Positions 21,001-27,000 of a DNA stretch of 54,511 nucleotides are shown piece after piece; the stretch's first letter is position 1; each line of letters begins with the position of its first letter. The DNA lies in the NCBI GenBank assembly GCA_046075565.1, contig JBJTQJ010000105.1, positions 1 through 54,511 on the forward strand, given 5' to 3'. A program made the position numbers. The stretch is from Verrucomicrobiales bacterium. Its GTDB lineage: Bacteria > Verrucomicrobiota > Verrucomicrobiia > Verrucomicrobiales > SLCJ01.

Positions 21001-24000
21001 AACCGGAGGACGTACGAGTAAACCGATCACGCTCGCCCAAAATACACCGCCGCCGCCCATGCCCGACGTGGCACCGCCTCCGCTCCCGGACAACAACTAC
21101 GCCCCTGTCGATGATGTAATTCCTCCTCCTCCCAATCTGGCTCAAAACACCCAGCCTCGTCCGAGCACAGGCAGTGGCGGTGGCTCTAACAAAACCAAGT
21201 CGTCCACGACCAAACCCAAGTCCAGCACATCCTCCGGAACCAAGACTACTTCCAGCGTCGCCTACACCGTGGTCAAAGGCGACACCCTCTCGGGCATCGC
21301 CTCGCGTTATGGCACGAGTGTCTCGGCCATCCGTAGTGCGAACGGTCTCAGCTCCAGCAACTTGATCCGTGTCGGACAGAAACTCAAGGTTCCCAAAGGC
21401 AGCGGATCGGTAGCCAGCCGTTCCAATTCTTCCTCCTCCAAACCCTCCTCAACCAGCACGAGCAGCAGCGGCGGCTCTTACACGGTGAAATCCGGTGACT
21501 CCCTCTGGGTGATCGCCCGGAAAAACAATACCAGCGTGGACAAATTGATGAAGGCCAATGGTCTGAGCAGCGACAAACTGAAGATCGGTCAAACACTGAA
21601 GATTCCTTGAGGGGCTTTCAACGCAGCCAGCCATTTATTTCTCAAGCAGGGACTGCTTTCCGTAGCGGTCCATGATTCCGTGAGGACGAAGGTCGCGCAG
21701 AGGCTTCGATAGAGGCCGCATGGCTTCATTTCAAATGATGGCCGCGGGTTTGTTATCGGTTTTCCGTCTGACACCCGGTGATTCGGACGCGGTCCAGGCC
21801 ATGGCGACATCGAGGGTTTGACCGCGGGTGTTCTCGAAGGCTTCGACGGTGGCCAGCACGACGATCAACCCGCCGCGTTCGAAGACGTGGCCGCATCTCC
21901 GGAAGACACCGGGGAAAAGCGAGATTTCGGTGAAGCCATCGCGATCCGCCAGGGTGCCGAAAAACATTACTTCCCCCTTCAGCGTGTGGGTGCGGCGGCT
22001 CTGCACGAGCAATCCGGCAAAAAGCACCTGGCGACCTTGGCGTTCAGCCAAACGTGACGACCGGCAACATCGATCCCAGTCGAAACCGGGGGCTAGGTGT
22101 TCGAAGGGATCGAGAGAGTGGGGGAAGCCAAGCAATTCCATCTCGCGCGCCGCTCGTTCGGCAGGAGAGTGTTCCTTCAATTGATCTGGGACCACAGGTC
22201 CGGCCGGTGGTGCGAGCGAAAACAAATCCCCGGCCGGAAGTTCCGGCAAACGGCTGATTTCCCAGAACATGGCCGAGCGTCCGCGCCCGAACCCGTCAAA
22301 AGCCCCGGCGTCGAGCAAGCGGTCTTTCTCTTCGCGACTGGGCGCGACGCGATGGATGAAATCAGCCGGACTGACAAATGGGGCGAGTTTTCGTTCGTGC
22401 TCCCATCGTTCGAGAGTGGGACGGCCGAAGCCCTTGATCCAGCGCAACGGCGGACGCAGGGCCGGGCGGCCATCGGTCAGAACTTCAGTTTGCCAGCGCA
22501 CGCCGGAACGGTTGATGTCCGGGCCGAGCACGCTGATGCCGAGCCGCAGGGCCTCGAGCGTGTAGAAAAACGATGAGTAGAACCCGCGTTCGTTGTCCAA
22601 CACGGCGGCCATTGACTCGGCCGGCCAGCGGCATTTCAACCAAGCCGCTTGGTAAGCCTCCACCGCATAACTCGCGCTATGCGCCTTGTTGAACATGTAA
22701 CCATGGAAATGCACGAGCGTCGTCCAGACATGGCGGATGTCTTCCTCGGTGCGTCCGTTTTCGCGTGCTTTCTCCACGAATTCCACCCCGAGTTCGGCGA
22801 GCTTTTCCGGACTCTTCATCTTGACCAGTTCGCGCCGCAGCATGTCAGCCCGCCCGAGGTTCATGCCCGCGAAATGATGGGCGACCATGAGGATATGTTC
22901 CTCATAGACTAACAAACCATAGGTGTCGCGCAGGCACGACTCCAAGACCGGATGCGGATACCCCGCCTCCTCGAATCCCTGGTGACGCCTCGTGAAAGCG
23001 AGTTTCTTCGATTCATCTGCCGCACCCGGACGAATCACACTGACAATGGCGCAGAGGCAGTGCATGTCGCGGCAGTTCGACTGCACGAGCAGGCTGGTCA
23101 TGGCCGGGCTTTCGATGTGATGCACGCCGCGGGCGCCGCCGCTGGCGATCATTTCCCAAGTTGCCGGATCATCCCATGGGATTTTTTCCAAATCCACCGC
23201 GATGCCATGGCGCTCCCGCAGGATTCGTTTCACATCCCGCAGCACGGAAAGGCCGGCTTGGCCGAGCAGATCAATCTTCACGAACCCGAGCGATTCCACC
23301 GCGTCCATGTCGAATTGGGTCATACGCGGGCCGCGCCCGCTCGGCTGGAGCGGCATCACATCGGCCAGCGGCTCGCGGCTGATGACAATCCCGCACGGGT
23401 GCATCGAGGCATGACGCGGCACATCTTCGAGGCGTGCCGCCATCTCGAGGATTTCCGGATACGGTTGTTCGCGCATGGGTAGGTCGCTTTCGAGAAACGG
23501 GATCTCCGCCACGGCCCGCGCGATGTCGTCGGCCCGGCTATAGGGCAAGCGCCGGGTGAAGGCCCGCGTTTCCGATTCGCTCAAGCCGTGGATCTTCGCC
23601 AGATCCCCGACCGCCGCTCGCGCATGGAAGCGGTTGAACCCGCCGATCATCGCCACATGGTCGTGGCCCCAGCGATCGAAGACATAAGCGATCATTTCAT
23701 CCCGTTGATCCCAGGGGAAATCCAGATCGATGTCGGCCAGTTTGCTGAACTGCGACCGTTCATGGTTGAGGAAACGTTCAAAGTAGAGATCAAACCACAA
23801 CGGGCAGACGCTGGAAATGCCGAGGCAATAACACACCAGCGAGTCTGCCGCGCTCCCGCGCGCCAGCACCGGAATCTCCCGGACGCCCGCCTCGCGCACG
23901 ATGTCCCAGACAATGAGGAAATAATCGGCATAGCCGACCGACTCGATCACGGACAATTCATGGTGAGCCCGGGCTACCGCGTCGGCCCGCCGCCGCGACA

Positions 24001-27000
24001 CCTCCGGGCCGTAACGCCATCTCAGACCCTTGAGCACCAGTCCACGCAGGAAGGTAATCCGGTCCGGTGTCGGCCCGCCCTCCGACAATCCCAAATCCTC
24101 GGCCTCGACATGGCGAAACCAGTTCTCCGGCACGGGAAAGACCGGATAAAACCTCGATGGGCTGGGACGGGGACGGCTCACTCAATAAATGTGTTCAAAA
24201 GAACAATTTTAGCAAGCGAAGAATCGGGGACATGTCTGGAACGCCCTCGCGTCCTGGAGGGGGAGGACGTCGCATCCCGCATGCACCGCTGGGATTCGTC
24301 CGAACTCCTGGGGCTCGGTGGTTCCACCCTCAAAGCGGTGGAGGAACCACCGCAATCCAGAGCCTCCGGCGGTTAGGTGTCGGCCGATTCAAGATCGATA
24401 GTGTGAACAACCAGTTCAGACTCCGGGTTGAAAAGACCAGTGGATGCTTCACTACTTCTCCGCAGGGGCCTCGAGGGCTTCGATATGCAGGCGCACGGCT
24501 TCGGTCATGCCGCGTTCGCTGTAGCCGCCTTCGAGCAGCGAAACAATCCGTTCATGACCTTGTTCGCGGCAGAGGGAGCGCAGGATATGTGTGAGTTCGC
24601 CATAGACCTGACTCGACCAGCCGAGTTCGCCGAGTCGGTCCTCCTCATGTGCGTCGAAGCCGGCGGAGATGATGAGGAGTTGTGGTTTGAATTTGCGGAA
24701 GGCATCGGTCAGTTGGTTGCGAAATGCGTGAAGCACTGCGGCATCTCCGCTTCCGGCGGCCAGCGGCACGTTCAAGTTGAAACCTTTGCCCGCGCCCTCG
24801 CCGGTGATGTCCGGGGATCCGCTGGGACCGGGATAAAACGGGTATTGGTGGGTGGAGAAAAAGAACACGCTGGGATCCGCGAGGAAAACCGCCTGGGTGC
24901 CATCACCGTGGTGCACATCCCAATCCACGATCATCACACGTTCCAATTTATGCTGCTTTTGCGCGTAGCGGGCGGCGATGGCCGCATTGGAAAAGAAGCA
25001 GAAGCCCTTGGCTTTGTCGGGCATGGCATGATGGCCTGGTGGTCGCACGGCGGCGAATGCGTTGTTCACGCGTCCTTGCATCACTAAATCGACGGCGGTC
25101 AAGCAGCCGGCGGCCGCTGTTACCGACACGTCGTAAGTGTGTTTGGAAATCGGGGTGTCCTGATTTCCGTGCATCCGTTGTTCGCCTTTTGCACAAGCGT
25201 TTTTCAAGTTCGCCACGTAGTTGGCATCGTGAACTTTGAGGATCCATGGCAATGGATCCATCTTCTCGTCGGGAATGGTCCAGAGCAAGCGCTGGGAAAC
25301 TGGTTGGGCTTTGAGATGCGTGGTCAATCGGCGGAGGCGGTCCGGATTTTCCGGGAATCCCGGGCCGGTATCGTGGTCGAGGAATTTCTTATCGTAAATG
25401 ATGGCGGTGCGGAAGCTTTCCGGCTCGGGCCGCGAAGGCTCCGTTTGGGCCGACAAACAGGACAAGAAAAACGCGACGATAGCGAGGACGCGGTTGGTGA
25501 TACTTTGTTGGCTTTTCATGGTAATCCGAGAATCTGCGGACATGTTATTCATACGCTTCGGCGGGGGATTCGGGGATTCTCGGAATGAAGGAAGGGGAGG
25601 CAAGAGGTTTTTGCCATGCGGAAGAGATGATGTAGATTCCGGGGAAACATGGCCGTTTCCAGCAGCAATGCCCGCAGCATCACCCGTAAGGCGAAGAGCA
25701 ATCTCGCCTTCGCGTTGGGCAGTCTGCCGAGCGAGAGGCGAGGGGATATGGTCACATTTTATGCCTTCTGCCGACTGGTGGACGACATCGCGGATGACTC
25801 GGAGGTGCCGGTGAACCGCAGGGAAGCCTCGCTGCTGCTCTGGCGCGACGCGTTGTGCAGAGAGGTGCCCGGAGAGGATCCCTTGGCCAGCGAAGTGCGT
25901 TCCCTGGCGGCGAAATACCGGATTCCGATCGAACGGTTTGAAGAGATTCTGGAAGGAGTGACGCGGGATCTGCGGCCACAAACGTTTGGCACGGCCGAAG
26001 ATTTGGAGAAATACTGTCACCTTGTCGCCTCGGTGGTCGGGTTGGTGAGCATCGAAATATTCGGTTACAAGGATCCGGCCTGCCGCGACTATGCGCTTTC
26101 ATTGGGCCAGGCCTTGCAGTGGACGAATATCCTGCGCGACGTGGCCCAGGATGCAAAGGTGGGTAGGCTGTATTTGCCCTTGGCCGACCTGCATCGTTTT
26201 CAAATTACCGACGCGGAGGTGCTGGGCGGAACGATGGATGGTCGGTTCCGCGCCCTCATGGAACATGAATACCACCGGACCGAAGCCTACTTCCAGAAGG
26301 CGGTGGCGATTCTGCCGAAGCGGGATAGGAAATCCATGGTCGCGGCGGAGACCATGCGGAGGATCTATCACGCCTTGTTGCTGAAGATGCGGGCCGACGG
26401 ATTTCAAGTGTTCTCCAAACGATACCGTTTGGCCAAACCCCACATGCTATGGCTCCTGCTGGCCACGCGGCTTGGTTGGGAGCGGCGGGCAAGAAATTCG
26501 CGCTGATGGTTAGGCGATATTCCTCTCAGAATACGAAGAGCCAGCCGATTTCGGTGAGAGAATCCTCGTAGATGGAATACAGCTGGGCGTCGTAGATGGC
26601 CCGGGCATTGGTGACCCACTCCTCGGCTTCCTTGTTTTCCTTTTTCTCGAAATGCAGCGCCGCCATCGAGTAATAGTAAATGGGCGCATCATCGTAGATA
26701 TCGTATCGGTTGATCAGAGGAGTCGCATCATCAAACTTCTGCTGCTTGATGAGGCACAGCATGACCTTGTATTCCATGAGCTTGCGGGTGGTCGCATCAA
26801 TGGCATCTCCTTGTTTCAGCAGTTCGCGGAATTGTTTTTCGGCTTCTTCCCATTTTTTCTGCACGAAGAACATTTCGGCGCGATTGAAGTGGCTTTGCCA
26901 GAACGTCGGATACAGTTTTGCGGCTTTTTCGAAGTAGAGCAGGGCACGATCAAAGTCACGGATCTGGACCAGACAGGAACCTTTCAGATTGAGAACCACC

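Follow-up and report, generated by a model that had tools for sequence, protein, structure and literature searches.

A predicted SOS-controlled, intein-free C-family DNA polymerase encoded by separate PHP and core genes in Verrucomicrobiales

The PHP domain is described as lying invariably within the single polypeptide of C-family polymerases, and its non-enzymatic role is unclear (PMC3666897). In this study, we have explored a 54,511-nucleotide stretch of DNA from a Verrucomicrobiales bacterium (assembly GCA_046075565.1, contig JBJTQJ010000105.1, analysed at its full length and called the window below) which encodes a DnaE-type polymerase without this domain. The locus raises the question of whether such a gene is half of a working polymerase, a piece of a larger fused protein that came apart, or simply a broken gene. 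Our investigations demonstrate that the division between PHP and core is real and conserved.

The polymerase core and the free PHP

The genome-wide survey's note on this DNA had described a PHP-less DnaE gene, and the 816-residue ORF bears this out (Table 1): Pfam recognises pol3_alpha, finger and HHH_6 in it and no PHP domain, the protein consisting of thumb/palm, fingers, HhH and OB domains. Upstream of the core there is no long frame and no PHP. The start had been put at 24133; we place it at the GTG at 24181 because the homologs P0001 and P0002 begin with the identical N-terminus. The hallmark of the C family, palm, thumb and fingers with three catalytic aspartates, is present (D150, D152 and D304), and the canonical architecture with the PHP in the same polypeptide is absent, the PHP being a separate gene. 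All 14 of the 14 PHP-less cores checked carry the DDD triad, and the first 15 DinB rows checked carry D/D/E, in agreement with the earlier claim that the catalytic aspartates of both polymerases are intact. An AF2 model of the core alone (pLDDT 88.7) has 7pu7 as its best PDB match (TM 0.78). Judged from its sequence, the core is predicted to work like DnaE although it lacks the canonical one-chain architecture.

Table 1. Features of the window discussed in the text
Feature	Position	Strand	Basis
PHP-less DnaE2B-type core, 816 aa	21731..24181	-	Pfam, structure model, catalytic residues
Perfect TGTTC-N4-GAACA palindrome, predicted LexA-type operator	24192..24205	.	10 nt upstream of GTG start
TG-n-TAAAAT, extended -10-like, abuts operator; putative promoter element	24206..24214	-	sequence reading
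lexA, 210 aa, DNA-binding domain + S24 peptidase	45781..46413	-	sole lexA match genome-wide
Predicted operator upstream of lexA, 1 mismatch	46424..46437	.	motif scan

The three modules lie on separate contigs, the core on C105, dinB at C80:14644-15873 and the PHP gene at C127:1149-1955, the latter two just where the survey had put them. With a fused relative as the query, the only four matches in the genome were on these three contigs and on C14, which carries the replicative DnaE1.

A second split genome, from another family (G120), has the order lexA-dinB-PHP with the core on a different contig, a linkage that ties the free PHP to the DinB/DnaE2 system. Among 200 genomes of the order, G120 is the only one with a close PHP-less core and also the only one with a stand-alone PHP match at E<=1e-25, the other four matches being long ImuB-type DnaE2 frames. 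Stand-alone cores of ~800 aa and PHPs of ~268 aa had been reported from elsewhere, and we found both in the database: the best 13 core matches measure 796-945 aa, and 15/17 PHP matches measure 242-310 aa, one of these 15 (P0135) clustering with unsplit proteins in the tree. Fifteen PHP-less cores, with identity down to 54%, form one clade (100/99). Relatives fall into matching identity tiers for the core (86-91/67-69/54-62%), DinB (90/68-76/56-61%) and the PHP (74-85/46-53/37%). Core and free PHP were seen together in two genomes only, this one (G000) and G120, the remaining split members being unlinked database proteins, and samples of 400 order, 400 phylum, 3 same-family and 134 G120-family genomes yielded no other split genome. 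We also saw a partial match, of 815 aa, at G070:C22.

In unsplit relatives, the last PHP helix is followed by about ten residues and then by an FPxF motif. The free PHP, which bears the TLL/HPxK signature of the subfamily, terminates within this PHP-core linker, and the core begins just ahead of FPxF; Pfam scans found no intein domain on either half. The metal ligands of proofreading PHP exonucleases are given as HHDHEH[C/H]DH in PMC12926913, and at the seven of these positions that were checked (two lie outside the check) the PHP of this genome retains 2/7 and that of G120 6/7. By this ligand criterion, the PHP of this genome does not qualify as a proofreading exonuclease, its metal site being degenerate.

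Predicted LexA operators and the DinB partner

The verrucomicrobial LexA operator is reportedly TGTTC-N4-GAACA, a motif that we adopted from the survey's note. Perfect boxes precede the core gene and ssb, and boxes with one mismatch each precede lexA, recA and dinB, so that all five boxes named there were recovered (<=1 mismatch); upstream of the PHP gene of this genome there is no box within 3 mismatches, as had also been stated. Genome-wide, we counted 56 boxes at <=1 mismatch instead of 17, four of them perfect (that of the core included), vs 113 expected from 5-mer frequencies, and the box evidence is therefore positional and not one of enrichment. G120 and L127 likewise have perfect boxes upstream of their PHP-less cores, which makes 3/3 cores with upstream DNA; among non-edge fused loci, those that have a short LexA-like gene all carry a box (22/22). 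A sigma-70 scan of positions 21500-24500 returned no -35/-10 pair. Going by the predicted operators, the core, dinB, lexA, recA and ssb would fit a verrucomicrobial LexA regulon, and the PHP gene would not.

The DinB of this genome has intact catalytic residues (D6, D99 and E100) and is encoded by the single PF00817 gene returned by a Y-family search. With DinB tails combined into a profile, the RecA N-terminus of the same genome ranked 3rd of 7380 ORFs when the profile was cut to 22 columns, a choice made once 25 columns had scored lower; in an HMM version of this search RecA was not among the top 8. PF20114, which we take to be ImuB-C, was found in 0/5 genomes, one of which has an imuB-type cassette, so that this is a weak test of the absence of ImuB-C. 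A contrast between 52% identity to fused DinBs and 34-38% to free ones had been proposed, and we could not confirm it: identity is 48% to free operon DinBs of the same phylum (L098, L101) and 55-90% to stand-alone DinBs of its own lineage.

Fused relatives and the order of events

The DinB-PHP-DnaE fusion described for the order was found again. Core matches at E<=1e-120 occur in 42/200 other genomes of the order, with 42/47 matches inside frames of 1343-1608 aa, and DinB and core share a single ORF at 45 of the 53 loci examined in full. A lexA gene directly upstream is less general than had been claimed, since a full LexA precedes only 15 of the 45 fused loci, a LexA paralogue without DNA-binding domain precedes 23, and neither is present at 7. 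The gene anatomy given by the survey is confirmed, but its box count, its DinB identity contrast and its lexA adjacency are not. The fusion is real, yet already named in NCBI annotation (HBP54693.1, Verrucomicrobiales, 'fused DNA polymerase IV/DNA polymerase III subunit alpha'), which makes it less new by itself; this name does not extend to the PHP|core split. No dedicated NCBIfam model matched the fusion, and we found no paper on it. When residues 1-1183 of a fused relative occurring in nature were folded, the pTM was 0.59 and the DinB/DnaE orientation was not confident.

Whichever of two models was used, core trees put the PHP-less clade outside the fused clade, and AU tests reject its nesting in either fused branch (p<1e-70; L101, L050, P0085, L075 and L076 left out). 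This core test replaces earlier AU tests which forced L101 outside the fused clade, its possible home, and were not clean nesting tests. The reduced trees had 27-40 rows; seven rows that owed their PHP-less label solely to truncation or divergence were dropped from the trees (L048, L049, L165, L166, L179, P0072, P0090). Compared with the free PHP, fused PHPs have lost 30-60 residues: one segment retains 8-41 residues in fused PHPs vs 70-71 in the free PHP, and has 71-73 in DnaE1, ImuB-type DnaE2 and basal unfused members. Both the rejected core nesting and the segment missing from fused PHPs argue that extant fusions are not the ancestors of the split genes. On these same two grounds, the earlier reading of a fusion 'cut into three' is not supported; its other part, three modules of one SOS-type DinB and DnaE2 system, is supported. 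All outer branches are unfused operons, and the PHP tree hints at a grouping of the split clade with unfused PHP-DnaE2 groups (95/91). In the best PHP tree, the G120 PHP is apart from the other free PHPs; a single free-PHP clade is not rejected (p=0.29). Most likely, a dinB-dnaE2B operon underwent two distinct changes, one of them the fusion and the other the fission between PHP and core.

Alternatively, a fused DinB-PHP-DnaE ancestor could have been cut twice, which alters only the order of events and leaves the mechanism as proposed below. The tests do not reject trees with the split clade as sister to all fused forms taken together (p=0.41-0.44 for the core, 0.16 for the PHP), nor does the DinB tree, where own-lineage and fused DinBs share one clade (100/99), reject nesting within the fused clade (p=0.35); an older fused ancestor of the split genes is therefore possible. 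Fissions at the DinB|PHP junction also seem cheap because it has reopened at least twice within the fused clade (L050 and L101, both with an ATGA overlap). We nevertheless consider two cuts unlikely, as they require one extra event and run against the rejected core nesting in the extant fused clade, the ancestral-length segment of the free PHP and the unfused state of the outer branches.

Known systems and a possible two-chain polymerase

The three genes resemble the Bacteroidetes-type DnaE2B-PolY-RecA module, as presented in passages of Timinskas & Venclovas 2019 (PMC6511836) and Timinskas et al. 2026 (PMC12926913), in having a Y-family and a C-family polymerase that both look active, a RecA-NT-like PolY tail, a lexA link and, judging from the single PF00817 gene, perhaps no ImuB. 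The core also clusters with a Bacteroidota dinB-dnaE operon, and this operon and the DnaE2 subfamily stand apart from ImuB-type DnaE2 (98/94; L192, L193; a single Bacteroidota sequence on a long branch), identity to Bacteroidota proteins being only 31-34%. Unlike in that module, DnaE2 is here divided over two genes, and no linkage joins the three genes; polY and dnaE2 are on different contigs in both this genome and G120, whereas they are co-localised in relatives, where PolY and DnaE2 also occur as one chain. Neither a split nor a fused DnaE2 is described in those passages, and the 2026 supplement may comment on fused or PHP-less entries in its DnaE2 rows; its genome list has three Verrucomicrobiales (PMC12926913). 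In common with our system, the ImuA-ImuB-DnaE2 mutasome has an SOS-linked DnaE2, a PHP that is degenerate and a partner of the Y family. Unlike there, the Y partner is here catalytically intact, with 409 aa and no long C-terminal domain, and the core scores 454 on NF004225 (cut-off 939) and lies outside the ImuB-type clade. The cyanobacterial split-intein DnaE is a replicative polymerase re-ligated by trans-splicing. It is likewise a C-family polymerase in two unlinked genes (passages of PMC3919608), from which ours differs by its intein-free halves and by the break in the PHP-core linker. What is new here is an intein-free two-gene C-family polymerase.

The explanation that we favour, and judge reasonably probable as a whole, is an error-prone DnaE2B-PolY-RecA-type system under SOS control, with its DnaE2 split in the linker, together with the following docking and history. 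DNA damage would lead to LexA cleavage and to induction of the core and DinB, and the PHP chain, without operator here, would already be present. This chain would bind the core in trans, docking as a non-catalytic scaffold, so that the two chains together would make up a normal DnaE fold. The DinB tail may bind RecA, with lesion bypass divided between DinB and the core. As for the history, from an ancestral lexA-dinB-dnaE2B operon one branch would have merged DinB and DnaE2 into a fusion with a shorter PHP; the other would have parted PHP from core (lexA-dinB-PHP | core, the state of G120), after which the three genes would have become dispersed, as they are in this genome. On a more specific version we are evenly divided: the PHP, with its degenerate site and outside SOS control, would be an obligatory trans scaffold that activates the SOS-induced core in a DinB-RecA-PHP-core mutasome, sister lineages having fused all of it into one chain. 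The split lineage, a small one within the Verrucomicrobia, represents a natural test of the PHP scaffold role in a predicted damage-induced polymerase: since the PHP is encoded separately, the core could be assayed with and without it and with no engineered cut. Operon, fused and split states all occur within the same DnaE2 subfamily, and the fusion lends Rosetta-stone support to the predicted, uncharacterised PolY-DnaE2B-RecA mutasome.

It could also be that the core needs no PHP for its activity and that the free PHP is a drifting leftover or has another job. The confident model of the core alone would fit this, although model confidence is uninformative on stability, and so would the faster divergence of the PHP (37% identity to G120 vs 58-61% for DinB and core) and its lack of an operator. 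We hold this to be improbable, as both split genomes and 14 database clusters retain the PHP at full length and its non-catalytic motifs are invariant, and as the stability and activity of E. coli Pol III require PHP integrity (PMC3666897). That dnaE2 is broken and decaying, or that assembly or binning produced an artefact, is a reading to which 129 contigs, a PHP contig of just 6.2 kb and three genes without physical link might point. It is largely refuted and very improbable, given the single clade of diverse cores with intact triads, the perfect operators at 3/3 cores with upstream DNA, the lack of a long frame upstream, the similar GC3 of all three genes (0.73-0.75) and one public contig, possibly from the source sample, that covers the core locus without a joint.

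PHP-less polymerase cores and free PHP genes

What sets this locus apart is an intein-free split between the PHP domain and the DnaE core, and not, as the genome-wide survey's note had it, a fusion polymerase cut into three. A Pfam scan of the core ORF found DNA_pol3_alpha, finger and HHH_6 domains and no PHP domain. We place its start at a GTG, and not at 24133, because homologs share that N-terminus. The AlphaFold model of the core has a pLDDT of 88.7, and among PDB entries it matches M. tuberculosis DnaE1 best (7pu7, TM 0.78). The genome (3.9 Mb in 129 contigs, the window being contig C105) holds one further DnaE gene, the replicative one on C14, a single Y-family gene, and a free PHP gene of 268 aa on C127. 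A fused DinB-PHP-DnaE relative matched exactly these four places, which bears out the survey's view of the modules as separate genes. In one public contig, possibly the source sample, the locus is continuous, with no joint.

The split is both real and conserved. Among the best 120 of 3596 matches, the 13 best core homologs are all PHP-less (796-945 aa, 54-91% identity), and PHP-bearing proteins begin at about 50% identity. Together with a marine contig (L127) and our core they make up a clade of 15, which IQ-TREE recovers with support 100/99; the catalytic DDD, intact as the survey had stated, is present in 14/14 aligned PHP-less cores. In G120, a genome of another family, the PHP-less core and a lexA-dinB-PHP array lie on separate contigs; no other genome among the 200 gave a stand-alone PHP match (E<=1e-25). 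The break is clean: the free PHP ends within a short linker behind its last helix, and the core starts just ahead of an FPxF motif that follows the linker in unsplit relatives. Pfam scans found no intein domain on either protein. Close to its N-terminus, the core of G120 repeats a helix segment of 29-30 aa about four times in tandem.

A literature search for stand-alone PHP with DnaE gave no match, and one for split DnaE returned, judged by titles and abstracts, no paper on a PHP|core split of this kind. PMC3666897 describes the PHP domain as invariably in the same single polypeptide; PMC3919608, which surveyed about 2000 genomes, terms it nearly universal, and its section 14 describes no PHP-less variant.

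Coordinates of the core, its neighbours and features at compared loci
Feature	Location	Strand	Remarks
PHP-less DnaE core	window 21731-24181	-	816 aa
lexA	window 45781-46413
Palindromic repeat	window 24317-24374		~57 bp, multi-copy, upstream of core promoter
Ribonucleotide reductase-like large and small subunits	window 16045-20468	-	1093 and 364 aa, near core; by eye
CoA-transferase + GNAT + deacetylase fusion-like protein	window 47626-50484	+	952 aa; by eye
G120 core	L032:10015-12852		945 aa
G120 free PHP	L073:6934-7725
ATGA stop-start overlap	L050:4320-4323
ATGA stop-start overlap	L101:8083-8137		stretch holding the overlap
Short LexA-like genes	L035:9034-9486; L051, L084-L087, L089, L090, L112-L117 and others

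Order of fusion and splitting

The fusion protein that the survey described is real. The core matched in 42/200 other genomes of the order (E<=1e-120), 42 of the 47 matches lying within frames of 1343-1608 aa; 45 of 53 loci taken in full encode DinB and core in a single ORF, and two genomes of the phylum outside the order (L099, L100) also have it. Annotation already knows the fusion, since NCBI names one database fragment 'fused DNA polymerase IV/DNA polymerase III subunit alpha'. Literature searches by this name and for a DinB-DnaE fusion protein in Verrucomicrobia found no paper on it, and the sole match for Verrucomicrobia, LexA and dnaE2 concerned Bacteroidetes.

By the simplest reading, a dinB-dnaE2B operon became fused in one lineage and underwent the PHP|core split in another. 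Unfused dinB-dnaE2B operons are present in outer branches. In the core trees four branches meet in a polytomy: the PHP-less clade, two unfused groups and the fused clade, the last of these on a long stem of its own (0.38-0.59 changes per site, support 100/100). In the PHP tree the free PHPs lie outside the fused clade, leaning to an unfused group (95/91). Independently of the trees, one segment measures 70-71 residues in the eight free PHPs of our lineage, 72 in DnaE1 and 72-73 in ImuB-type DnaE2, of which fused PHPs keep just 8-41 residues; judged from these lengths, the free PHP therefore cannot derive from any sampled fused PHP.

An older fused ancestor of the split genes is possible, if rather improbable: a sister position of the split cores is not rejected (p=0.41), and the DinBs of our lineage form a 100/99 clade in polytomy with fused DinBs, for which nesting is not rejected either (p=0.35), a less decisive result than the core and PHP evidence. 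For the core, an origin within the fused clade is rejected: placing the split cores inside either of its two branches lowers the log-likelihood by 192 units (AU p<1e-70). The DinB|PHP junction appears to reopen easily, because two unfused dinB / PHP-dnaE operons (L050, L101) are nested inside the fused clade, each with its stop-start overlap shortly behind the RecA-like tail.

Partners of the split core

The core family clusters with a Bacteroidota dinB-dnaE operon, apart from ImuB-type DnaE2 (98/94), and DinB and core match the DnaE2B-PolY-RecA module of Timinskas as outlined in PMC6511836 and PMC12926913. Our DinB is intact and its C-terminal tail resembles the N-terminus of RecA; when 76 DinB tails were made into a profile, RecA ranked 3rd of 7380 own ORFs, with a 22-column cut picked after a 25-column cut had scored lower, and an HMM version did not have RecA in its top 8.

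The free PHP probably docks on the core as a scaffold. The binding score that the survey gave for PHP and core could stem from similarity to DnaE structures already solved. Proofreading by it is unlikely, because its sequence retains 2/7 metal-ligand positions checked. According to PMC3666897, the degenerate PHP of E. coli Pol III is still required for stability and activity. The G120 free PHP, unlike ours, retains 6/7 positions and might bind metal.

LexA-type boxes and LexA-like genes

Immediately behind an extended -10-like element, and 10 nt ahead of the start of the core, lies a perfect TGTTC-N4-GAACA, presumably the LexA motif as the survey assigned it; the G120 and L127 cores likewise have perfect boxes ahead of them. 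The survey's boxes before lexA, recA, ssb and dinB were found again, perfect for ssb and with one mismatch for the others, but its 17 genome-wide hits at <=1 mismatch became 56, against 113 expected. Our PHP gene, which has a divergent AAA ATPase gene as its neighbour, is preceded by no box within three mismatches. The LexA assignment gains support because the box is placed at 22/22 non-edge fused loci having a short LexA-like gene, and we regard it as a putative LexA operator.

The 15 fused loci with full-length LexA all lack the N4 box (<=1 mismatch, up to 900 nt from the fused gene), and TGTTC-N6-GAACA precedes lexA in several (L034, L069, L107, L109, L110), possibly reflecting a LexA with shifted operator spacing. 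At 23/45 fused loci, the gene ahead of the polymerase encodes a LexA paralogue of 120-150 aa that lacks the DNA-binding domain and retains the S24 peptidase and an Ala-Gly site; in two such genomes, G046 and G050, a full LexA is encoded elsewhere. A short LexA paralogue beside a Y-family polymerase is a UmuD-like architecture, and it is possibly a convergent Pol V-like subunit.
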